Below, piece by piece: positions 528-50,293 of a DNA stretch of 64,000 bases. Origin of the DNA: a virus. The first letter of the stretch is position 1, and each line of letters begins with the position of its first letter. The notes under the pieces are model-generated. The model was not told where the DNA came from and ran no database searches. It saw only the letters and a program-made list of their open reading frames with translations. A program made the translations under genes and the position numbers. The stretch is from the IMG/VR virus record IMGVR_UViG_3300021963_000055, positions 32,001 to 96,000 of that record. One strand, 5' to 3'.

Positions 528-2668
528 GCGATTTGCTCGATGAATTTCGATAAGATGATCTTATTAAAAGCCTTCTTACTCATTTTAGTTTTAAATGCTG
601 TCAGTACATTTGATGAATTTACTAAAGAGTCATCAGTGGGAGAACTATTTCCAATTTCAATAAAGTAGAGTTCATTGTACCCCAAAGAAGTTGCAGTAAA
701 TGACCTAGTTTTTGCCCACTCTGAAGACACTTCACTCCAAGATGAAAATTCATCTTGAAGATAACGATTAAGAAAACTCTTAGCTCCATAGAAATCAATA
801 AGTCGGAATCCCACGGCATTAGATCCAGTAATTTGACGATAGTAATCTACAAATGCACTGGTAATTCCCATACTTCCATTCTTACTGATATTCATCATGG
901 TAATTTTGTTTTTCTTGTCTTGAAGACATAGAACTTCATTAAAGTTAAGCCACCCAGAATGAACAATGTTTTTACTACCATAACTTGGACGATTGTATGC
1001 AACTGAGTTGGATTCTCCATCAGTCAAGAAAACTGTGTTAACCTTATCTACTTTATAAGTTTTTTTGAACTTGTCAAACACCTCAATAGCTGCGAATACG
1101 CATTCATTTAGAGGAGTGCTACCTAGATCATAATGACCATACTCACTAGTTAGATATGATTGCTGATCTAGAGTATGTGCGAGTTTCCAAAGATTCTTCA
1201 TCTGACTCTCCATTTGAGCAGTATTCATTTTACTACTCAGAAAATTCACAAGAAGAAAATCACTATTGATATAAATTTGATTTTCCTTTACGGTTATTTG
1301 CTTACTGCGAGACATTTGAGCATAGTTCTTTGCAATGTTCCTGTCGTTAAAGGAATACACTTCAAAAGAAATCTGTGTCTTTTTACAGAACTGAATTAGA
1401 TTGAATAGTTGCTTGATAGTGCCTACTAGGTTTCCTTGCATGGAACCAGACCAATCAAGATACATGATCAGACCATGAGACTTACCTTTAGGAACTACAG
1501 TTACCTTCTTGAAGATATCATCATTCCACTTGTAGGAATACATCTTATTGGTATCAAGAACACCAGTCCCAGCAGTAGCAGACCGATTGTATTCGGCTGC
1601 TCGCTTCTTCATTTCAAATTCCTTAATCAGATATGACACAGACTTCTTACAATCATCTTTGTAATTTTTGTAATCATTTTCTGCTTTGTTAAACATACTC
1701 TGGTAATAATTCTTGTTTTTATATCCAGAGTGATTAGCATAATCAATTATGCTGGTAAAAATCTTGGGAAGATCGTTGACACATTCTTTCCAGGGAAGAA
1801 GATGATTATCAATATTAATAGATGGTGGAGTCAAATAGATGTAGGTGTCACCAGTAAGACTAGCAAGTTGCTGTTGATTTTTAGACCATGCCTTATCCGT
1901 ATCAGAACTAAAATCTGCTTGCTTCCCTGAGTTGGTGGAAGAAGATGGAGTAGATTCCTCAGGAACATCTTCCTTATTGTCGCAATCTGATTGAGCAGAG
2001 ATTTGATTCTGACTATCGCTCACGTTACTCTGAAAACTCTGATTCTCTTGAGGATCCGACTGATTTATTTCACCTTCAAGTGAATCACCTGCAGTAGAGG
2101 TCAATTGAAGTTCAACTTCTTGTTCAGTGTGCTCTACCAGTTCTTTGACAATATTGACAACATCATCAAAAGTTTCTGCATTAGAAACTTTACCAATAAT
2201 TACCTGCTCTTCTGGAGTAAAATTGATAAACACCCCAGCATTAACGTTACCAAGTTTAAAATGAAGATTAATTTTATCAATAAATTTCAGTGAATTGATA
2301 TCAATTGTTTTAACTTCAAAGAAATCCTCATCATGAAGTTCTGAATATCCACGATAAAATGCACGAGCAAGACCAGGGTACTTGCGTTTCATGAGTTTCT
2401 CGATGCGAGCATCCTCAATCACGTTCAAGTAACCCTGAGGGAGATTTAAATCACTACCATAAAGATCTGGAGTGTAAATGGCATGACCAACTTCATGACC
2501 CACAAGAAGATCATATACATCATTAGAAGTGCCTTCCCAAATAGGAAGAGTCAGCACACGATTGTGAGTGTCAAAGCTTGCAGTAGAAACAGAACGATGT
2601 TCAACGGTGAGGTTTTCAGTCGCTAGGAGTTTCGCAAGAATACTCTTGGTCTGTTTGATGTCGGACAT
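524..2668 (-). CDS. CobT-like protein: N-terminal HExxH metallopeptidase-like domain plus C-terminal VWA domain
   Basis: HEVGH motif, NVIEDARIE, acidic linker, MIDAS DWSGS...T...LTDGE; adjacent to the AAA+ cobS gene. Confidence 0.8.
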   Translation of the reverse strand: MSDIKQTKSILAKLLATENLTVEHRSVSTASFDTHNRVLTLPIWEGTSNDVYDLLVGHEVGHAIYTPDLYGSDLNLPQGYLNVIEDARIEKLMKRKYPGLARAFYRGYSELHDEDFFEVKTIDINSLKFIDKINLHFKLGNVNAGVFINFTPEEQVIIGKVSNAETFDDVVNIVKELVEHTEQEVELQLTSTAGDSLEGEINQSDPQENQSFQSNVSDSQNQISAQSDCDNKEDVPEESTPSSSTNSGKQADFSSDTDKAWSKNQQQLASLTGDTYIYLTPPSINIDNHLLPWKECVNDLPKIFTSIIDYANHSGYKNKNYYQSMFNKAENDYKNYKDDCKKSVSYLIKEFEMKKRAAEYNRSATAGTGVLDTNKMYSYKWNDDIFKKVTVVPKGKSHGLIMYLDWSGSMQGNLVGTIKQLFNLIQFCKKTQISFEVYSFNDRNIAKNYAQMSRSKQITVKENQIYINSDFLLVNFLSSKMNTAQMESQMKNLWKLAHTLDQQSYLTSEYGHYDLGSTPLNECVFAAIEVFDKFKKTYKVDKVNTVFLTDGESNSVAYNRPSYGSKNIVHSGWLNFNEVLCLQDKKNKITMMNISKNGSMGITSAFVDYYRQITGSNAVGFRLIDFYGAKSFLNRYLQDEFSSWSEVSSEWAKTRSFTATSLGYNELYFIEIGNSSPTDDSLVNSSNVLTAFKTKMSKKAFNKIILSKFIEQIA

Positions 2669-2691
2669 AGATGCCTCAATTCAGTCCTCAT

Positions 2692-2720
2692 ATAGTAACA
2701 GGTCCATCCCACTGTGTCAA
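2692..2720 (-). promoter_or_regulatory. sigma70-type promoter (TTGACA-17-TACTAT)
   Basis: atagta 2692-2697 and tgtcaa 2715-2720 on plus; the -35 lies in the loop of the inverted repeat tccatccca/tgggatgga. Confidence 0.75.
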
Positions 2721-2742
2721 TGGGATGGATTATAAGGATTGC

Positions 2743-4455
2743 TTATAGCTCTTTTACTTTACTAAAATTCTTGACTTTCTGGAATTGTAGAACCTTTTCA
2801 AATTTATCGTGAAGCATATCTCCTTTATGAGAGATGACAAACACATTTGTATCAGCATCAATTCCACGAATAATACGAAGAAAATCTTCAGTGCCAGAAG
2901 TATCTAGTGAACTATCAAAAACTTCATCCAAGATTAGCAAATTTGTATTTGTAGAATTTTTTAGTTTAGCAACTGCTCTCCAAGTAAACATCAATGCCAA
3001 ATCAATTCGCATCTTTTCTCCTTCTGAAAATGAAGTGTAACTAAATTCATCCCGATGTCTAGATTTGATAGTTTCTTCAAAGTTTTCGTCAAGATTAAAG
3101 TTTACATAGAAGTCCATTAACTGAAGATACTTATTGATCAACTGATTCATTACTGGCAGATATTTTTTAATGATCTTAGACTTGATGCCAGTATCCTTTA
3201 ACAAACTAGAAATAATTTCAAAGTATGTTTTATTGGCTTTCATTTTGTCAACTTGCTTTTGCAGAGCAACTCCTTCAGAAGCAAGTGCGGTTAGTTTTTG
3301 TTTTTCAGTTGCAATGTCTTTATCGGATTCAGAAATTTTTTGAATTTCTTCTTTAAGTGCATCAATAAATTTTGTGAGTCCGTTACACTTATAATTTTGT
3401 GATGTCATCTTGACAGTCAAATCATTAATTTCAGCTAAAATTTTCTGAGATTTATCAATGATTTCTTGTGACTCTTGAATTTTAATTTCAACTTCCTTTA
3501 TTGAATTTTGAAGTTTTTCTATCTCAGAGTTGCATTTTGAAATGTGTTTGATTTTAACTTCATCAGTCAAATCCTGATGGCAAGTTGGGCACGTATGATT
3601 TTGATCATAAAACTGGATATTAGATTCATGATCGGATAGTTTAGTCGAAAATTTTGTCCTATAGTTTTCAAGTTCTTTGATATTAATTTTTGGAAGACTT
3701 GCAAGCTCTTTATTTTTAGCGTGAAGATCTTTACAGATTTTATCGTAGGTTTCGTTGCATTCCGTTATTTGTTGTTCGTAATCTTTTATTTGAGCTTGCT
3801 TATCTTCGATATTTTTCTGAGATTGATTTTTAATGTAGTCAATATGATTCTTTTGCATCTTAACTTTTTCTTTCAGAAACTCAATCTCATTTTCATATGA
3901 TTTGATATTGTCATTATTTGTTTTGACTCTATCTTTCAAGATGACATTCATTGTCGAGAAGATACGAATGTCTAGAAGGTCTTCAATAATTTCTCTGCGG
4001 TGTGCTGCAGGAAGTTGCATGAATGGAACAAAGGTACTTGATCCAAGAATTACAATCTGAGTAAATGATTTGTAATTTAATTTTAGAATATTTTGCTCTA
4101 GATATTTTTGCTGATCTGACGATGCAGCAGCTTGATCCAATAGCTGACCATCTATCCAGATCTCAAAGATGTTTGGTTTGAGTCCACGAATAATTCTATA
4201 TTCTTTTGAACCTATACTGAACTCTAGGTCTACTTTACAGTCTTTTTCGTTTATAGAGTTAATAAGTTGGTTTTTATTGACCTTGCGAAAGGACTTGTTG
4301 AAGAGAGCAAATACAATAGCCTCGATAACGGTACTCTTACCAGCTCCATTAGATCCAACTACCAAGGTTGTATTTGCGTCGTTTAGATTAATTTTTATAG
4401 GTGTGTTACCTACTGCAAGAAAATTAGAATATGTTATAGACTTAAATAAAATCAT
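2743..4455 (-). CDS. gp46: Recombination endonuclease ATPase subunit gp46 (SbcC/Rad50-like)
   Basis: Walker A GSNGAGKS, coiled coil with zinc hook CPTC, signature FSEGEK, Walker B LLILDEVFDSSLD. Confidence 0.97.
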   Translation of the reverse strand: MILFKSITYSNFLAVGNTPIKINLNDANTTLVVGSNGAGKSTVIEAIVFALFNKSFRKVNKNQLINSINEKDCKVDLEFSIGSKEYRIIRGLKPNIFEIWIDGQLLDQAAASSDQQKYLEQNILKLNYKSFTQIVILGSSTFVPFMQLPAAHRREIIEDLLDIRIFSTMNVILKDRVKTNNDNIKSYENEIEFLKEKVKMQKNHIDYIKNQSQKNIEDKQAQIKDYEQQITECNETYDKICKDLHAKNKELASLPKINIKELENYRTKFSTKLSDHESNIQFYDQNHTCPTCHQDLTDEVKIKHISKCNSEIEKLQNSIKEVEIKIQESQEIIDKSQKILAEINDLTVKMTSQNYKCNGLTKFIDALKEEIQKISESDKDIATEKQKLTALASEGVALQKQVDKMKANKTYFEIISSLLKDTGIKSKIIKKYLPVMNQLINKYLQLMDFYVNFNLDENFEETIKSRHRDEFSYTSFSEGEKMRIDLALMFTWRAVAKLKNSTNTNLLILDEVFDSSLDTSGTEDFLRIIRGIDADTNVFVISHKGDMLHDKFEKVLQFQKVKNFSKVKEL

Positions 4456-4717
4456 GAGTGATAGTATCAGGAGGAATTACAAAATCATCGGGGGTAATTA
4501 CACAATAGCTGTAACCAAAATTTTCACACGCTGCAATAGCATCTTCTTCTTCTATCTGAATTAATTGCATTTCGGGAAAACCATCAGCCTCTAAAAGTCC
4601 AATATATCGAGCTGCATCATCTTCATCAACAAACATCTGAAGAACTTTTGTTCCATCAGATGTTGTTACTGCGTATGCACCTTCTTCTTTTTTGTCTTTT
4701 AGAGTGAGTATGAACAT
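4442..4717 (-). CDS. Conserved cyanophage hypothetical protein (DUF3110-like)
   Basis: FVDEDDAARYIGLLEAD motif; position between g47 and g46. Confidence 0.65.
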   Translation of the reverse strand: MFILTLKDKKEEGAYAVTTSDGTKVLQMFVDEDDAARYIGLLEADGFPEMQLIQIEEEDAIAACENFGYSYCVITPDDFVIPPDTITHDFI

Positions 4718-5766
4718 TAGAGAACTTCAGAAGCTTCGATGTAAATAGATTTAACGATAGATTTCAAATGAAATTTATCATAATTATCTTTCATATCTTC
4801 TATATATTTCTGAAGAGTTGTGAGGGTATCTTCGTGTTCAATGGTTTCAATATCACCATTGTCGGAAGCTATTTGAGTATCCTCGATAATTTTAAGATCA
4901 TGGATACCTACATTATAGAACCTTTCCACAATTTTGTCAAACAGGTATAGGTCAGTTTTATTTTCGACTATGATCTTCACATAAGTATCTTTGTACTCAC
5001 TGAGATCCATTTTCAAATAATCGTTAGCGATATCATCATAATAAAACTTTCTAAACATTCGGAATGGATTACGAATGAACTTGAGTTTTCTAGCATCTAG
5101 ATCATAAAGATGAAAACCTCTTTCTTCATTGTAATCACTCCAAGTCATTTCATATGGATTGCCAAGATAGTAAATATTATCACTTCTAGACTTGTGATGA
5201 AAATGACCTGAGAATACTCGTTTAAACTTGGAGAATATATCTCGATCTAAACCACCCTCAAATGTATGTCCTGGATGGGCTTCAAATCCATTGATTTCTA
5301 GGTGTCCCATCAAAACTTCAGATTTAGTGTTCTGAAGATGAGCCATCACTTTTCCTTGATTTTCAGAGTTAATCCAGGGAACCATAGTAATGGTATTGCC
5401 AAGAACATCAATGTCGCAAATCTCATCATAGATTGTAATATTATCATAACAATCTAACAATAGAGTTGGAGTGTTTACTCTGTTAGTATTCTTGTAGTAT
5501 GCAGTATGGTTTCCAACAATCATGTGGACTTGTATACCCATATCTGCTAGTCGATCATAATAATGTCTTTTGATTCTATCCCAAGCTACAAAATCAATAG
5601 CCTTACGATTGTCAAAAGTATCTCCAAGATCAAATAAAATTTTAATGTTATATTTTTCTAGAGTGGGGAAAAATACTTCATCATAGAATTTTAGAAAGAA
5701 CTCCCAGAAAGCTTGGGAGCCTTTTCTTCCGTCGAGATGCTGATCAGTAATAATTGCAGAGTTCAT
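4717..5766 (-). CDS. gp47: Recombination endonuclease nuclease subunit gp47 (SbcD/Mre11-like)
   Basis: Metallophosphoesterase motifs DQH, GDTFD, GNH, SGHFH; upstream of g46. Confidence 0.96.
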   Translation of the reverse strand: MNSAIITDQHLDGRKGSQAFWEFFLKFYDEVFFPTLEKYNIKILFDLGDTFDNRKAIDFVAWDRIKRHYYDRLADMGIQVHMIVGNHTAYYKNTNRVNTPTLLLDCYDNITIYDEICDIDVLGNTITMVPWINSENQGKVMAHLQNTKSEVLMGHLEINGFEAHPGHTFEGGLDRDIFSKFKRVFSGHFHHKSRSDNIYYLGNPYEMTWSDYNEERGFHLYDLDARKLKFIRNPFRMFRKFYYDDIANDYLKMDLSEYKDTYVKIIVENKTDLYLFDKIVERFYNVGIHDLKIIEDTQIASDNGDIETIEHEDTLTTLQKYIEDMKDNYDKFHLKSIVKSIYIEASEVL

Positions 5767-17550: not shown

Positions 17551-19227
17551 TTACTTATATTCCCACATGTAAGCCATATCGCCATACTCATCAACATTCC
17601 ATTTACTATCAGTAGCAGAAGTCCAATAATCTCCTTTTGTATCTATAAAAGTAGTTTCATCATCAGTTAAGCCATCTAGTATAAAACCAAATGGAGCCAT
17701 ATCCTGTTCAATAGCCTCTCTTTGGTCTTCAAAAATTCTTTTTCTGACATCATTTGAAGTAAGCTCTCTAAAGTAAGGTTGAGTGGATAGCCAGGAAAAA
17801 ATCACAAGACACATGGCAAGGTCATCGTTACATCCTTCTTCTGCATTAAAGGTATCACTTTTTTGAATGAACGTAGTAAGCTCACTAATAATATCGTAAT
17901 CAGGAATCAATAATTTATCATCTTCAATCAATGCTTTCAGATTAGCACATCCATACTTTTTGACAGCTTTAGTCATCTTGACTCCTAACTGTGCTTTATT
18001 GGAAAACCCAGTGCCAACTAATTGTCCAGCACGACCTTTCATTGCACACATAAGCAAGTTATCATATTCAAGATCAAACTGAAGAATATCTGCCACTTGT
18101 CCTCCAATATCATTAACTTCAACAAGTACGTTAGCGTTGTTGTAATTTTTACCTACGGTATCAATAATATTAGGGAACAATATTGGTTTGATTTCGTTGT
18201 TTTTATATTTTGCTACTAATTTATATGGAATAGTAGTTACATCAATCACAGCAAATGCAGAGTAATCATTTCCAACTCCTCGTGCAACGTCAACAGTCAT
18301 AACATAGTCATGACCTTCTATTACGTCTTCATATACATCCAATCCACCACTTCTCTTTAGTGGATCTTCATAAACCATAGAACGAAGTTTATTTGGATTA
18401 ATGAGAGTATCAACAGATCCTAGGAAGGTACATTCAAATTCTTGCTCAAACTGTCGTTGAGAAGTGTTTGCAATAGTTTCTTCTTTCCATTTTTGGTCTC
18501 TACCTGGAACATCCCACCAATTAACTTCAAGTGGAGTGTAACTGTTTTTTCCTCGTTCTGCATCATGCCAAAACTTGTAGAACATGTTCATTCCATTTGG
18601 TGTGGAAATGATAATAACTTTAGTTGTCTTACCAGATGAAATGGTTGGATATACAGAGCTAAAGAACTGTTCTGCAATATGGTTTGGAATGAATGCAAAC
18701 TCATCCAAAAAGATGATGTTAAAAGAGTTCCCTCGGACAGCAGATGATGAGGTAGATGCAGCAATAATTTTAGATCCGTTCTCTAGCTCCAGTGAGCCAC
18801 GGTTCCAAGAACCCACGCCCTGCTGTAACCATTTGGGTAGATTTTCATAGGATAACTGCAATCTGGATAGAAGTTCCCTTGAGGTCTCTGCTTTATTTGC
18901 AAGAATAGCTATTTTTACGTTTGGGTTGAAAAGTGCATAGTGCAACAGGTAGGAAACCACAGTAGTTGATTTCCCTGTCTGTCTTGGAAGCTTTGCAATA
19001 TTGAATCTATGTTTATGAAAATTATCAATTAATCTTTCTTGAAATTCCCACATTTTAAAAGGTACTAGACCTTCATCAAGAGAAACAATTTTAATATACT
19101 TTTTGGCAAAGTAAATTGGGTCTTCTTGACACTTCAAATATTCTTCTAATTGTTCAGAAGTAAATTGTATTTGTACATTAGAAGGTTTTAGGTTGGGATT
19201 ACCCTTATAACTAGATTTATCACTCAT
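17551..19227 (-). CDS. gp17: Terminase large subunit gp17
   Basis: PRQTGKST, FLDEFAF, ISTPNG, DVARGVGNDYSA, DDLAM. Confidence 0.98.
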   Translation of the reverse strand: MSDKSSYKGNPNLKPSNVQIQFTSEQLEEYLKCQEDPIYFAKKYIKIVSLDEGLVPFKMWEFQERLIDNFHKHRFNIAKLPRQTGKSTTVVSYLLHYALFNPNVKIAILANKAETSRELLSRLQLSYENLPKWLQQGVGSWNRGSLELENGSKIIAASTSSSAVRGNSFNIIFLDEFAFIPNHIAEQFFSSVYPTISSGKTTKVIIISTPNGMNMFYKFWHDAERGKNSYTPLEVNWWDVPGRDQKWKEETIANTSQRQFEQEFECTFLGSVDTLINPNKLRSMVYEDPLKRSGGLDVYEDVIEGHDYVMTVDVARGVGNDYSAFAVIDVTTIPYKLVAKYKNNEIKPILFPNIIDTVGKNYNNANVLVEVNDIGGQVADILQFDLEYDNLLMCAMKGRAGQLVGTGFSNKAQLGVKMTKAVKKYGCANLKALIEDDKLLIPDYDIISELTTFIQKSDTFNAEEGCNDDLAMCLVIFSWLSTQPYFRELTSNDVRKRIFEDQREAIEQDMAPFGFILDGLTDDETTFIDTKGDYWTSATDSKWNVDEYGDMAYMWEYK

Positions 19228-19242
19228 AATATTTTATTTAAA

Positions 19243-19458
19243 TTAACAATTCCAGGCTCTTAAAGATTTATTGATTCTGCTGTTTGGATCGTTGGCTGTT
19301 TTTGAACTAGTAAGTTTCTTTTTCATACCACTCATCCTGGCACAAAATGATGCCCTGCGAGGATTGCCTACCTTTTTTGAAGGTGCCTTGAGATCGCTTC
19401 CAGGATTTTCTTTTTCGTATGAGCGGCGTCCTTTTTCATTCAGTCCGCCGCTTGGGGC
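19243..19458 (-). CDS. Startless -1-frame C-terminal module (71 aa, DUF6321-like) of the 19440-20504 gene
   Basis: APSGGLNEKGRRSYEKENPGSDLKAPSKKVGNPRRASFCARMSGMKKKLTSSKTANDPNSRINKSLRAWNC*; continues the AAWTKKSGK motif of the upstream ORF; an in-frame TAA lies two codons before the shift site. Confidence 0.75.
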   Translation of the reverse strand, partial: APSGGLNEKGRRSYEKENPGSDLKAPSKKVGNPRRASFCARMSGMKKKLTSSKTANDPNSRINKSLRAWNC

Positions 19459-19464
19459 TTTCCC
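19422..19464 (-). other. Candidate programmed -1 ribosomal frameshift signal (G_GGA_AAG plus downstream stem-loop)
   Basis: Heptamer at 19464-19458, spacer CCCCA, stem AGCGGCG (19452-19446) pairing with CGCCGCT (19428-19422). Confidence 0.65.
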
Positions 19465-20504
19465 GATTTCTTAGTCCAAGCAGCTCCCTCAGTCTTTAAC
19501 TTTGGCTTTTTCCACTCAGGACCTTTTAGTTTTGATTTAGCTACAGAAGCTTCCCCTGCACTAGTAGTTCTATCTGCAAGATTTCTAATCTTTGCTTGCT
19601 TTTGAGCAGTTTTATGTCCAGGACCAATCTCAAAGCTTGCTTCTTTCATAAATTCAGAGAAAGATTTTGATTCCCCTCTAAGCTGACGATAATGTGCTTT
19701 CTTTTCTGCACCAGAAGAACTCTTTAACCATGGATCATCATGATCAATTGAAGATTTATTAACTTGAACAGTCTTTACTTTATTCTTTGCATATGATTTT
19801 CCACTACCATATACAACTTTAGTTTTTGTTGGTCTAGTTGATTGATAAACTCTTCCTCCGCTACCAGTACGACCAACTTCTACTCTTCCTTTTGCTTTAT
19901 CAATTAATCGTCTAATTAATCCTTCATCCAATTCTTCATCAGATGCAAGATATTCGGCAGCAGTATCTACAAAGTCCGCAGCTCTAGTAATTTTAGATTG
20001 TACCCATGCAGGTAGTTGCTGATTTGATTTACGAATAACTTTACGAAGCATAGCAATAGATCTTTCCATTTGATCTAATTCAAGTTTTGCCATGTAACCT
20101 TCATGGTCTTTAATCTTTCCTGAAGCTATCTCTTTATGGTCTTCTTGCATGTTGAGAAGACTAGTATTCATTTCCCATGCACTAGGTCCATATGAACACT
20201 CAGATTTTTTCTCTGGTTTTTCGCAAAGATGGCAATAACGAGTTTCTTCTTTCTCTTCTTTGACGGCTTTTTTACCGTTTCTCCATTCTCCCTTTAGTTT
20301 CTTTTCCATCTTGAGTAAGTGCTTGTAGTAATCTGGAAATTCTGCAATATGCTGAAGTGCGATATTGTACGCCTCATCATGCTTTGTAACATGCTCTCGT
20401 TCTACAGTAGATCCAATTTCAGCTTGCCTGATAACGTAATCTACTGAGACGCCATGTTTTTTAGCAATCTCCTTTTCAGTAGGAACTCTTTTGTGTGCCA
20501 TCAC
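19440..20504 (-). CDS. Multi-module basic protein, probable internal head protein (N-terminal DUF5661-like module)
   Basis: GSTVEREH...IALQHIAEFPDYYKHLLKME; LPAWVQSKITRAADFVDTAAEYL; internal KSFSEFMKEA motif; located between g16 and g17. Confidence 0.7.
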   Translation of the reverse strand: MMAHKRVPTEKEIAKKHGVSVDYVIRQAEIGSTVEREHVTKHDEAYNIALQHIAEFPDYYKHLLKMEKKLKGEWRNGKKAVKEEKEETRYCHLCEKPEKKSECSYGPSAWEMNTSLLNMQEDHKEIASGKIKDHEGYMAKLELDQMERSIAMLRKVIRKSNQQLPAWVQSKITRAADFVDTAAEYLASDEELDEGLIRRLIDKAKGRVEVGRTGSGGRVYQSTRPTKTKVVYGSGKSYAKNKVKTVQVNKSSIDHDDPWLKSSSGAEKKAHYRQLRGESKSFSEFMKEASFEIGPGHKTAQKQAKIRNLADRTTSAGEASVAKSKLKGPEWKKPKLKTEGAAWTKKSGKPQAAD

Positions 20505-21052
20505 CCACCTACAATCTGAACTTCAGTAATATGTCCTGTAGCAGCGCCATTGCCATCAGGCTTTACAGAAAATTTAATTGAATTTGAAAGAGTTGCAGTG
20601 TCAGTAAAATCTGCATATGCAGATGAATTTAATGCAACAGTAATTGAAGTATCTGTAACTGCAATAACTTCTAGGTGTGCAATGCCAGTATTGTACGCAG
20701 CAACTGAAGATCCAGTTAAAGTTACATAGTCTCCAACCGCAAAAGGATGTCCAGGAGTACCAGTATCAAGAGGAATATTCATCACTGTATTGGTTGCACC
20801 TTTAGTGATTGAAGTTATTCTTACTCTTTTTGGAGTAGCACACTTTACAATTTCAGAACTTTCTTTTGGGATATGAAAATCATTTCCATCTACTGCAGTT
20901 GGATTGCCACCCCATGCTACATGAATTGCATCACTAGCATCAGCAGTAAAACGATAAATTCCACTTCGTACAATTACTGCAGCGGACTGTGTAGCGTTAC
21001 CACCAGTACACGCCACCGCAGCAATATTTTGGACAACCTTAAGTACAGACAT
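20501..21052 (-). CDS. Conserved hypothetical (probable virion) protein
   Basis: 183-aa beta-rich ORF (HPFAVGDYVTL) in the late operon, coupled to the next gene. Confidence 0.6.
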   Translation of the reverse strand: MSVLKVVQNIAAVACTGGNATQSAAVIVRSGIYRFTADASDAIHVAWGGNPTAVDGNDFHIPKESSEIVKCATPKRVRITSITKGATNTVMNIPLDTGTPGHPFAVGDYVTLTGSSVAAYNTGIAHLEVIAVTDTSITVALNSSAYADFTDTATLSNSIKFSVKPDGNGAATGHITEVQIVGG

Positions 21053-21062
21053 TAAAATACTC

Positions 21063-21491
21063 CTATTCTTCTGTATTATTTATTTTTGATTGTTTTAGAA
21101 ACTTTTGTAGTTCTGCGGTGGAACCAACAAACATAGTATTATTTACAGTAGATGGACCTTTAGTTGGTTTATCTTCTTCAATATCTTTCATCTTTTTCTG
21201 AACTTCTATTAGTTTTTCTGCAAGCTCTGAAACATTTTTAATCCCTTGGAAAGCAACTTCATAAGCTCTTGGATGATCACTTTGAGAAGCTACATCTAAA
21301 ATTCCATCAATTGCTTTTTGTCCTTTTTGAATTAAATTGTATAGTTGACCTCTACTATATTTGTAATCTTTTTTTAGATCTTCTAAATCTGAATCTAAAA
21401 TAACTTCAAGTTCTGAAACTATTTCTGATGTGTCATTTGAGTTAGTTGGAACTATATCAAAAGTGTCATCTAATTTATCGTATGCTGACAT
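21063..21491 (-). CDS. gp16: Terminase small subunit gp16
   Basis: DYKYSRGQLYNLI, HPRAYEVA, FVGSTAELQK; start placed at MSAYD. Confidence 0.92.
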   Translation of the reverse strand: MSAYDKLDDTFDIVPTNSNDTSEIVSELEVILDSDLEDLKKDYKYSRGQLYNLIQKGQKAIDGILDVASQSDHPRAYEVAFQGIKNVSELAEKLIEVQKKMKDIEEDKPTKGPSTVNNTMFVGSTAELQKFLKQSKINNTEE

Positions 21492-21493
21492 AA

Positions 21494-22291
21494 TTATTGT
21501 GTCCAAAGTTCATTAAATCCAAAGTTATCGTCAGATTCAACTAATAAATCATCTGCAGAGTTAATTTTACCATCTTTATTTAAATCTGTTAGTGCCTTAG
21601 GAGTTACACTATAAGTAACATATCTATTTGCATTGATAGCAGTTCCAATATCAACGTTAACCTTTTTAATGACATCAGAAGTAGTAATAGGACCATAAAT
21701 ATATGACTTTGCAGTGAATGTTAAAGTATAAATAATTGTTCTTCTTTGTGTAAAATCACCTTCATAGTCATCTTGAATAGAAACATTATTCAGTAAAATT
21801 GGAATATCTCTTTTCTCATTTGTCTCTGCTACCATATTAATAGTAATTGAAAAATATGGCTGAAAGAATGGTAAAATTTGCTCTAAAATTTGAACGGCAT
21901 CATCATTATTCTTGCTGATGATTGCAACTTCAAAGTCTAGATTGTATGGCACTGGCAGATAATGAGAATATGTTTTTTCAGTATCTCCAGATTTTGGGGT
22001 TCTGCAGATTTGAGTAGGTCCAAGCTTTCTCGCAGCATCATAAGAAATTCCTTTCATCTCAAAAGAAATTCTGGGAAGCTGAATTTGTGTTGGTCGTCTC
22101 TTGTCTAAATCTGGCTCTGCTTCTATTCTAGCAAGAAATTTTTCTGTAGGTCCATATGCAAGAGGAACCTTAATTGTCTGCTTAACAACTCCGTCTTTGT
22201 CTTTACGTTGAAGTTCTATATTATTGAATAATGTACCAAATCCAACAATAGTTTTACGAATTGATTCGTTATAAAAATGTGTACCTAACAT
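21494..22291 (-). CDS. gp15: Tail sheath stabilizer / completion protein gp15
   Basis: FGTLFNNI, VPLAYGP, LPRISFE, QILEQILPFFQP. Confidence 0.95.
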   Translation of the reverse strand: MLGTHFYNESIRKTIVGFGTLFNNIELQRKDKDGVVKQTIKVPLAYGPTEKFLARIEAEPDLDKRRPTQIQLPRISFEMKGISYDAARKLGPTQICRTPKSGDTEKTYSHYLPVPYNLDFEVAIISKNNDDAVQILEQILPFFQPYFSITINMVAETNEKRDIPILLNNVSIQDDYEGDFTQRRTIIYTLTFTAKSYIYGPITTSDVIKKVNVDIGTAINANRYVTYSVTPKALTDLNKDGKINSADDLLVESDDNFGFNELWTQ

Positions 22292-31338: not shown

Positions 31339-32949
31339 TTAGAATTCTACTACTAATTTAATATCTTCAATTTGATCATTAGATCTGAAAACTGGTTTTC
31401 TATTTTCAATGTAAATAATTTTACCACTATATTTTTTAATTTCTCCGTTAGAATACCCGTTTACAAAGGTAGTTCCTGAAAGAACTGTCCCCACTGGAGT
31501 GCTATATGAAGTATCTGGCATTGCAGTAACATTACCTTGAGAAATTGCAAAATTACCAGAAAAATTAATAAATTTATCTTTATTTGCTCCTTCTTGAGTT
31601 TTATTGATATGCTCATTTTGATAATATTTTAAAATTTTATTCACTGAATCCCAATGAATAATTCTTCCTTTTGCACCAGTAGTTGGCTGAGTGATAATTT
31701 CTCCGTTTGTAAAATCATCAATCATTGTGGATGGAAATTTAATTGCTTTGCATACTGAAGCAGTAGGAGCAGTATAATCTAAATTTCCTATAGTTTGGGG
31801 ATCTTCAATAAGCCCAAATCTTCTAAATTGCATGTTGATTGGAATATCTCCATTTCCATCAAGAAAATCAAGACTTTTATTAATCATTACTCTATACCCT
31901 CCTAATTCGTAAATAGAATTTGATCCATGTCCGCCAGGAGGAGAAATAATAATTTCAAGTTTTGCAGTTGTTCCAAGACTAGTCACTGCACCAGATTGGG
32001 AATTTGCATCTGAAATACTAGAATAACATTTAGTTAAATCTGCTACGCCATAGGTATATCCAGTGCCAAGATAATTGTTTACTACTTCTACTGCAGTGAT
32101 CTTTGAAGAAGATACTGTAATACCTAAAATTGCTTTTGTAGACCCATCTCCAATTACTGGAGTGTACCAAGTTCCATTTGTGAGGCCAGAACCTCTATTA
32201 ACAATTAAAACTTGATGAATAGCACCATCTACTGCTGCATTTTTAACAGATGAATCTAACCTAACTGGAATAAAATCAGACGAAACAAATTTGATATAAT
32301 CAGAAATTGAAATAGTATACATGTACTTCCATTTATACCCATCAGAAGTACTAAAAATACCAGTGCTTGTTCCAGTTGGCTCTATAGTTGAAACTTTACC
32401 ATTTTGATTTACATCTGGATCTTGGCCATTGTATATGCATTTATATACTTGAAAATCTTTGTTCATGACATAAAATTGAGTATCATATAGTTTTGATTGG
32501 CCAGTAGAAGATATTTTTGGTTGGCCATTAACTATAGTTCCGTAATCATGTTTGTACATATCATAAACTAGTCCAGATTGCCAAACTCTTCTTCTAATAA
32601 CTTCAGATACATCACTTCTAGTTACTCTTTTTATGGCAATCATATCATCATAAATTTCACTCATTTCATCAAATGAATCTACTGGATTTGGAGGAGAAAA
32701 ATCTGAAATAGTAGATACGCCAGCATATTTTTCTGGAACTGCGCCCACAGTAGGATCATTCCAATTATAAGAACGACCAATAAAAAGATAAATCTTACTT
32801 CTATATGCTTGAGAAGCAGAAGATTCTGCAGGAGAAGCTACTTCGTCTTCAGATGCAGGTAAATAAGAACTATTATATGGTTCTTCTAATGATTCAATAA
32901 ATTGCTGTGAAGCAAAAATTCTAAAATTATCTGATACTAATGAAGGCAT
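31339..32949 (-). CDS. gp8: Baseplate wedge subunit gp8
   Basis: YDMYKHDY, FYVMN..FQVYKCIYNG, DGYKWKYMYTI, IISPPGGHG, QIEDIKLVVEF. Confidence 0.93.
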   Translation of the reverse strand: MPSLVSDNFRIFASQQFIESLEEPYNSSYLPASEDEVASPAESSASQAYRSKIYLFIGRSYNWNDPTVGAVPEKYAGVSTISDFSPPNPVDSFDEMSEIYDDMIAIKRVTRSDVSEVIRRRVWQSGLVYDMYKHDYGTIVNGQPKISSTGQSKLYDTQFYVMNKDFQVYKCIYNGQDPDVNQNGKVSTIEPTGTSTGIFSTSDGYKWKYMYTISISDYIKFVSSDFIPVRLDSSVKNAAVDGAIHQVLIVNRGSGLTNGTWYTPVIGDGSTKAILGITVSSSKITAVEVVNNYLGTGYTYGVADLTKCYSSISDANSQSGAVTSLGTTAKLEIIISPPGGHGSNSIYELGGYRVMINKSLDFLDGNGDIPINMQFRRFGLIEDPQTIGNLDYTAPTASVCKAIKFPSTMIDDFTNGEIITQPTTGAKGRIIHWDSVNKILKYYQNEHINKTQEGANKDKFINFSGNFAISQGNVTAMPDTSYSTPVGTVLSGTTFVNGYSNGEIKKYSGKIIYIENRKPVFRSNDQIEDIKLVVEF

Positions 32950-49882: not shown

Positions 49883-50293
49883 ATGAAAACATACTCCGAA
49901 TTCATTACAGAAGCTAAAAGAATTAAGATGACAAGATATTATCATGGGACATCATCATCTTCTGCAGATAGCATTCATAAGTCAGGGTTTAAAGGCTCTG
50001 AAGTACATGCATCAACATCTGCTAGAACTGCAGATGCTTTTGGTAAGAGGTATGGTAAGGATACTAGAACTCTTTCAATTCGTGTCCCTTCAAAATCAAA
50101 GCATGTAGAAAAAACAAAGGGTCAGCAAGGTATTGATGCTTGGGGAAGAAGACATCACTCTGCTATAATGAGTCCAGAGTATGCTTCTAAACACATTACA
50201 AAATCACCAACAATTCCTGCACCTAAGGTTCCAAAGAAGTATGCACATCTGAGTCCTTTTAAAAAACGAACTAAAACTCAAATAAAAAAATAA
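49883..50293 (+). CDS. Putative packaged internal head protein with an ADP-ribosyltransferase-like (YHGT) domain
   Basis: N-terminal MKTYSEFITEA resembles the T4 capsid-targeting sequence; YYHGTS...SIHKSGF...VHASTS..TA..F; late promoter ATAAATA at 49864-49870. Confidence 0.65.
   Translation: MKTYSEFITEAKRIKMTRYYHGTSSSSADSIHKSGFKGSEVHASTSARTADAFGKRYGKDTRTLSIRVPSKSKHVEKTKGQQGIDAWGRRHHSAIMSPEYASKHITKSPTIPAPKVPKKYAHLSPFKKRTKTQIKK

Follow-up and report, generated by a model that had tools for sequence, protein, structure and literature searches.

A likely programmed -1 ribosomal frameshift that would append a DUF6321 tail to a terminase-linked gene product in uncultured T4-like phages

The locus described here raises the question of why a complete protein domain should be encoded in a reading frame that gives it no start of its own. 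It lies on the minus strand of a 64,000-nucleotide (nt) stretch of viral DNA, referred to here as the window, which represents positions 32,001 to 96,000 of the 105-kb IMG/VR virus record IMGVR_UViG_3300021963_000055. In this locus, an open reading frame (ORF) of 354 amino acids (aa) terminates shortly after a GGGAAAG heptamer, and a whole DUF6321 domain is encoded from the same point in the -1 frame. Our analysis makes it likely that the arrangement is a conserved programmed -1 ribosomal frameshift, which would give a protein with and without a 71-residue DUF6321 tail. The elements concerned are the following.

19440-20504, minus strand: zero-frame ORF, 354 aa from the GTG at 20504, with an N-terminal DUF5661 domain and the C-terminal end ...EGAAWTKKSGKPQAAD*
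19471-19473, minus strand: TAA that closes the -1 frame upstream, two codons before the heptamer; it is at the same position in the related locus L130
19458-19464, minus strand: slippery heptamer GGGAAAG (G_GGA_AAG), in the X_XXY_YYZ phase of the zero frame (TC-G GGA AAG)
19453-19457, minus strand: 5-nt spacer CCCCA between heptamer and stem
19422-19452, minus strand: predicted stimulatory hairpin, with the 5' arm AGCGGCG at 19446-19452, a 17-nt loop at 19429-19445, and the 3' arm CGCCGCU at 19422-19428
19440-19442, minus strand: zero-frame stop TGA, 7 codons past the heptamer and inside the hairpin loop
19243-19464, minus strand: -1 frame extension (GGG AAA GCC...) with the whole DUF6321 domain and the stop TAA at 19243-19245

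The arms of the 7-bp stem are complementary at 100% of positions, and the hairpin has a predicted folding energy of -17 kcal/mol (z = -3.9), equalled by none of 200 shuffled sequences. GGGAAAG occurs three times in the window, the junction copy included. The in-phase heptamer, the CCCCA spacer, the stem, and the UGA in its loop had been claimed in an initial annotation of this DNA, and a check of the minus strand found all of them as claimed. The C-terminal letters of the zero-frame ORF have been variously excerpted as ...GAAWTKKSGKPQAAD* and ...AAWTKKSGKPQAAD; its product would end in ...SGKPQAAD, whereas the predicted trans-frame junction peptide is ...SGKAPSGGLNEK. The -1 frame translates as GKAPSGGLNEKGRRSY...SLRAWNC* and is open down to position 19246. 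The same annotation had suggested that this frame completes a DUF6321-like module, and the match to Pfam DUF6321 (PF19846) is in fact full length (positions 1 to 72 of 72, 85.2 bits against a cutoff of 28.5, E = 5e-24). The frame also matches the C-terminal ends of eight PHROG families, and it holds the one copy of DUF6321 in the 105-kb record. DUF6321 has no independent start, and since the TAA at 19471-19473 shuts its frame upstream, entry into that frame must fall within ~33 nt. The locus combines the hallmarks of a canonical -1 site, namely, an in-phase heptamer, a predicted structure 5 to 6 nt downstream, and an overlapping, start-less -1 ORF that is normally fused in frame.

We propose that most ribosomes would read through G_GGA_AAG and halt seven codons on, at the UGA in the hairpin loop, to give a product of ~353 aa. 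A fraction would be held up by the GC-rich hairpin 5 nt beyond the heptamer, and a tandem slip of the Gly and Lys tRNAs one base back, from GGA-AAG to GGG-AAA, would allow them to continue for 71 codons and to complete a protein of ~419 aa with DUF6321 at its C terminus. G_GGA_AAG has been reported to be highly shift prone in Escherichia coli (PMC5009743). Because the 71 residues would be added after Lys349, the slip product amounts to 349 + 71 = 420 aa, or 419 aa from an alternative ATG. The sizes first put forward, 354 and ~420 aa, are correct as ORF arithmetic; however, the likelier start is this ATG (20499-20501, minus strand), one codon inside the GTG chosen by the ORF finder, from which the products would measure 353 and 419 aa. 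The ATG overlaps the upstream stop codon as TGATG, and a related protein, P0008, begins MAHKRV, in agreement with a start at 20501. A second helix predicted by RNAalifold, in which the heptamer pairs with AAUCCUGG 55 nt downstream, was set aside on two grounds: the conserved ENPG motif is encoded in that segment, and the helix would be unwound whenever a ribosome occupied the heptamer.

The same frame break is found in other phages. IMG/VR and the JGI metagenomes were searched with a junction pattern that fixed only protein anchors (Ala-Trp, x, x, Lys, x, Gly ... Gly-Gly-Leu-Asn-Glu-Lys-Gly), with the spacing varied. The spacing of a -1 break was present in exactly five IMG/VR loci (L088, L107, L130, L151, and L184) and in one metagenome contig (L193), all with GGGAAAG in phase, and the heptamer is invariant in the seven frame-broken loci that these form with the window. 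In the six relatives, the upstream zero-frame ORF spans 269 to 596 codons (some are ended by contig edges), and its stop, UGA or UAA, is invariably at codon +7. All seven loci have 73 open codons in the DUF6321 frame, which in the six relatives is closed 2 to 32 codons upstream of the heptamer. Their 5-nt spacer is CACCA or CAGCA. Hairpins of 7 to 11 bp, reaching 11 bp in several relatives, are predicted in all seven loci (-14 to -20.7 kcal/mol; z, -2.0 to -4.6), and the stem has the same register in six of the seven, L088 being off by one. Each of the six genes is placed between the small and large terminase genes, and the upstream ORF begins with DUF5661 wherever the N terminus is present; L184 and L193 are without window residues ~195 to 277. 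The large terminase (TerL) proteins of these loci are 95%, 89%, and 68 to 70% identical to that of the window; therefore, the frame-broken loci belong to clearly different phages. A search of 5.8 billion proteins added three more truncated proteins, known from the protein alone, that end in SGKLQAAD, SGKQQAAA, and SGKHQAAA (P0008, P0034, and P0037, respectively). The exact window junction pattern had no match in IMG/VR, although near-identical records may lie outside the coverage, and the junction pattern had none in genome contigs. Every junction match among cultured phage genomes was in frame, the break being seen in none of them. So far, the phages known to have the arrangement number about ten, all of them T4-like, uncultured, and of freshwater or estuarine origin.

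Most homologues by far are in frame, and at least 120 matches to the junction pattern had in-frame spacing. In the 79 IMG/VR loci matched by the 354-aa protein, the two parts, where both are present, are always in one frame, and none of these loci has either the heptamer or the stem. The stem, scored as 7 of 7 positions paired, was absent from all 111 unique in-frame junctions among the matches listed and from all 27 found in the search with the 354-aa protein. The slippery heptamer was present in 2 of the 111 in-frame junctions among the matches listed, a count that understates its in-frame frequency by a few percent, since these control junctions were found without reference to the heptamer and omit the loci fetched earlier by the GGGAAAG pattern. 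The 45 nt downstream of in-frame junctions have a mean predicted folding energy of -7.1 +/- 3.8 kcal/mol. The cultured cyanomyoviruses illustrate the in-frame state: the DUF5661...DUF6321 proteins of S-RIM2 (SWUG_00084), Bellamy (gp123), S-H38, SynMITS9220M01 (SynMITS9220M01_097), and DSL-LC02/03 occupy the same slot, between gp16 and gp17, and have a C-terminal domain 87 to 89% identical in protein sequence to that of the window. Unlike the window gene, they are single in-frame ORFs that end in DUF6321 and have one extra base at the junction, no heptamer, and no stem, and the DNA alignment places a 1-nt gap in the window immediately past GGGAAAG.

The alternative that survives best, although we consider it improbable, is that the gap is simply a tolerated one-base deletion, so that DUF6321 has been cut off, the short protein is the sole product, and the -1 frame is a remnant that has yet to decay. 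Relatives that have no DUF6321, and are presumably functional, do exist: L006-L014, L017-L019, and L026-L028 stop just short of the TEGAAW module, with no DUF6321 elsewhere in the locus, and P0019 ends ...TEGAAWNC, as though a deletion had removed the DUF6321 sequence lying between the initial AAW and the final AWNC. Broken copies occur as well. L191 (~2036-2089, minus strand), the single locus with the spacing of a +1 break, is missing the heptamer and has more frame breaks within the domain; it resembles a copy that has decayed or is laden with errors, in contrast to the conserved -1 break. What argues against a remnant is, first, that the break persists across phages whose TerL proteins differ by up to 32% and that it coincides with a canonical in-phase heptamer and with a hairpin that none of the 138 in-frame junctions compared has. 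Second, the -1-frame domain of the frame-broken loci is under strong purifying selection. Past the overlap, the ratio of nonsynonymous to synonymous substitutions (dN/dS) is 0.03 to 0.15 at saturated dS (0.69 to 1.8) between diverged frame-broken pairs, the near-identical pair L107/L151, with 2 differing sites, being uninformative; an untranslated remnant would not show such conservation. The frame also stays open for 73 codons in seven of seven loci. Third, the synonymous sites of the signal itself are nearly frozen. Among degenerate codons with an invariant residue, 1 of 6 varies in the heptamer and stem arms, whereas the loop has 5 of 6 varying and the remaining domain 34 of 45 (1/6 versus 39/51 elsewhere; Fisher P = 0.007). 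The sole change in the arms, CGC to CGU opposite G, keeps the pairing, and 96% of stem cells are paired across the seven loci, compared with 23 to 79% when the partner is slid by one to three columns.

Less probable again, and quite unlikely in our view, is that DUF6321 is translated on its own as a small protein, whether ribosomes initiate internally or reinitiate after termination. Stand-alone DUF6321 clusters of 75 to 81 aa are indeed present in the protein atlas, and in some loci the conserved GCN-TGG (Ala-Trp) creates, a few codons upstream of the heptamer, an NTG in the -1 frame (ATG in L193; TTG in L107, L151, and L184). However, in the window and L130 a TAA falls between this NTG and the heptamer, and the next ATG, GTG, or TTG in the frame is ~45 codons into the 72-residue domain, which bears out the earlier claim of a TAA two codons before the heptamer with no start nearby. 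Reinitiation at the AUG that follows the zero-frame UGA was ruled out, because that AUG is itself in the zero frame and not in the DUF6321 frame. Moreover, a separate protein would leave the conserved heptamer, spacer, and stem unexplained.

A third concern was whether the break is real DNA. The stretch is present in the sequencing runs of at least five studies, and contigs from four runs of four studies, one or two of which may be the source sample while the rest are independent, bridge the junction.

18900-20100: contig of run X1, depth 41
19411-20100: contig of run X4, depth 11
19397-19584: contig of run X6, depth 8
19411-19605: contig of run X8, depth 3.7

All four span 19440-19470 with no differing letters and no gaps, and the insertion/deletion table is empty; the missing-base check called for at the outset thus excludes an assembly indel. 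The RNA runs X18-X20 cover small shares of the stretch only. Although short homopolymers (AAA and CCCC) adjoin the break, a sequencing or assembly artifact, by which a base was lost from the A or C run and the true site is GGGAAAAG or CCCCC, is very hard to reconcile with identical junctions in four runs of four studies with no indel variant, with equal spacing in six other assemblies whose spacers differ (CACCA or CAGCA), and with in-frame relatives that share the stem and assemble with a 6-nt spacer. Transcriptional slippage was also rejected, the longest runs being A3, G3, and C4.

Several considerations weigh against a programmed frameshift and temper our confidence in it. That ribosomes slip at the heptamer is inferred from sequence. 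The DUF6321-less relatives imply that phages can tolerate losing the tail. The frame-broken loci fall in an 11-tip clade (support, 0.92) of a tree of 213 unique modules, but four in-frame modules are inside the same clade, so that a single origin is not proven. The seven loci probably descend from one ancestral cassette and are not independent trials; being related by descent, their contrast with the in-frame set shows association and long retention rather than seven independent events. The stem shows only G-C to G-U changes, with no pair changed on both sides and five of eight pairs that never vary. The initial annotation had looked to homologues for a conserved break, heptamer, and covarying stem, and this was upheld in part: break, heptamer, spacer, and stem recur in six diverged loci, but most homologues are in frame and doubly compensatory stem changes were not found.

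The in-frame genes that share the signal are of interest in their own right. L085, L103, L162, L179, and L183 (e.g., L103 at 2041-4818, plus strand) are in-frame DUF6321 genes that keep GGGAAAG and a stem, AGCGGUG/CGCCGCU, behind a 6-nt spacer, TCTGAG or TCTAAG. Their N-terminal bodies are quite different (143 to 926 aa, with a DUF5661 match in none), and the cassette is kept although dS is 0.9 to 2.3 across the rest of the module. A -1 slip in these alleles would read GGG AAA GUC UGA (UAA in L162) and give a tail-less protein. It can tentatively be suggested, as a possibility that we regard as doubtful, that the heptamer-hairpin cassette is used in both polarities, such that slippage adds DUF6321 in the seven out-of-frame alleles and removes the tail in the five in-frame alleles. 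If so, a one-base change in the length of the spacer would reverse the proportions of tailed and tail-less protein, and if the protein is a protease-processed polyprotein, this would tune the amount of free DUF6321 module, much as happens with Gag-Pol.

That tailed phages use programmed frameshifts in tail chaperone genes and in a few genes for capsid proteins is textbook knowledge, and G_GGA_AAG is the slippery site of lambda G/GT. The proposed frameshift shares with lambda gpG/gpGT the identical heptamer, a -1 shift close to the 3' end of a structural-module gene, and the use of a single start for a short, presumably major product and a minor one with a C-terminal extension. The lambda gene is upstream of the tape-measure gene, whereas the gene described here lies, in a T4-like myovirus, between the genes for the two terminase subunits, and its extension is DUF6321; in addition, gpG/gpGT relies mainly on the heptamer, and here a strong hairpin at 5 nt is conserved. 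The E. coli dnaX site (A_AAA_AAG plus a stem-loop), which produces tau and gamma, resembles the window site in its Lys-AAG A-site slip and its GC-rich hairpin ~5 to 6 nt downstream. In dnaX, however, the shift leads to immediate termination and a shorter product, whereas here it would extend the protein, and an upstream Shine-Dalgarno stimulator was not established at the window site. It is the five in-frame sister alleles that would act like dnaX. As in the T7/T3 10A/10B capsid gene, a -1 shift at the 3' end would add a short C-terminal extension to a minority of the product, although the virion location is putative here and the heptamer, protein, and phage family are different. No report of frameshifting in this cyanophage gene family was found in the literature searched on DUF6321, DUF5661, and cyanophage frameshifting, and cyanophages are not mentioned in a 2016 recoding review. 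The case represents a known mechanism and a new example in a gene family where none was described.

What the tail does is suggested only indirectly by its sequence and distribution. DUF6321 is a basic domain of ~72 residues with an invariant GGLNEKG, SFC.RM, and C-terminal W.C. AlphaFold predicts four helices for it (mean pLDDT, 77.5), and the model has no structure match in the PDB (best E value, 4.1), and matches in the protein atlas are to DUF6321 clusters only, the stand-alone proteins included. The tail is a module that comes and goes. The gene is a mosaic: relatives that are 90 to 96% identical in N-terminal segments have DUF6321 variants that are 41 to 56% identical, or none, and in L016 the best N-terminal segment is 96% identical to the window and the DUF6321 module 41%. 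Within the zero-frame ORF, at ~19640-19667 (minus strand), is the motif KSFSEFMKEA, which we take to resemble the T4 capsid-targeting peptide; a plus-strand ORF at 49886 starts MKTYSEFITEA. In relatives, the residues before the AAW module are hydrophobic-x-Glu (MKE, IGE, or IEE), presumably a site of the T4 prohead protease type. These motifs hint that the frameshift gene product and the MKTYSEFITEA ORF may be head-internal, protease-processed proteins; the earlier label of head protein draws solely on the resemblance to the capsid-targeting motif and is to be read as putative. A possible role of the frameshift is to fix the stoichiometry at which the last module is present in a modular, perhaps protease-processed, virion protein.

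The genomic setting is that of a T4-like myovirus. The neighbors of the gene are as follows.

21063-21506, minus strand: small terminase (gp16-like)
20501-21052, minus strand: upstream neighbor, DUF7243 protein
17551-19227, minus strand: downstream neighbor, T4-type large terminase (gp17-like; Terminase_6N/6C)

The gene order is gp15-like (T4-gp15_tss), gp16-like small terminase, DUF7243, frameshift gene, large terminase, and tail sheath, with the gp15, gp16, gp17, and gp18 homologues in the T4 order that marks the structural and packaging module of T4-like myoviruses. The completeness of the 105-kb record is estimated at 57%, and the closest DNA relatives of the window are Kyanoviridae cyanophages.

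Recognition of a programmed frameshift at these loci would have consequences beyond the window. Such loci are now annotated as a truncated gene plus an orphan fragment, which this reading corrects. To our knowledge, few cases of -1 frameshifting on cyanobacterial ribosomes are known, and the locus would offer a compact natural signal of ~50 nt for it. If the protein is a processed polyprotein, the frameshift would set the amount of its last module, as in Gag-Pol. The DUF6321 tail is found on many otherwise unrelated cyanophage proteins, and a frameshift that governs its addition points to its dosage mattering.

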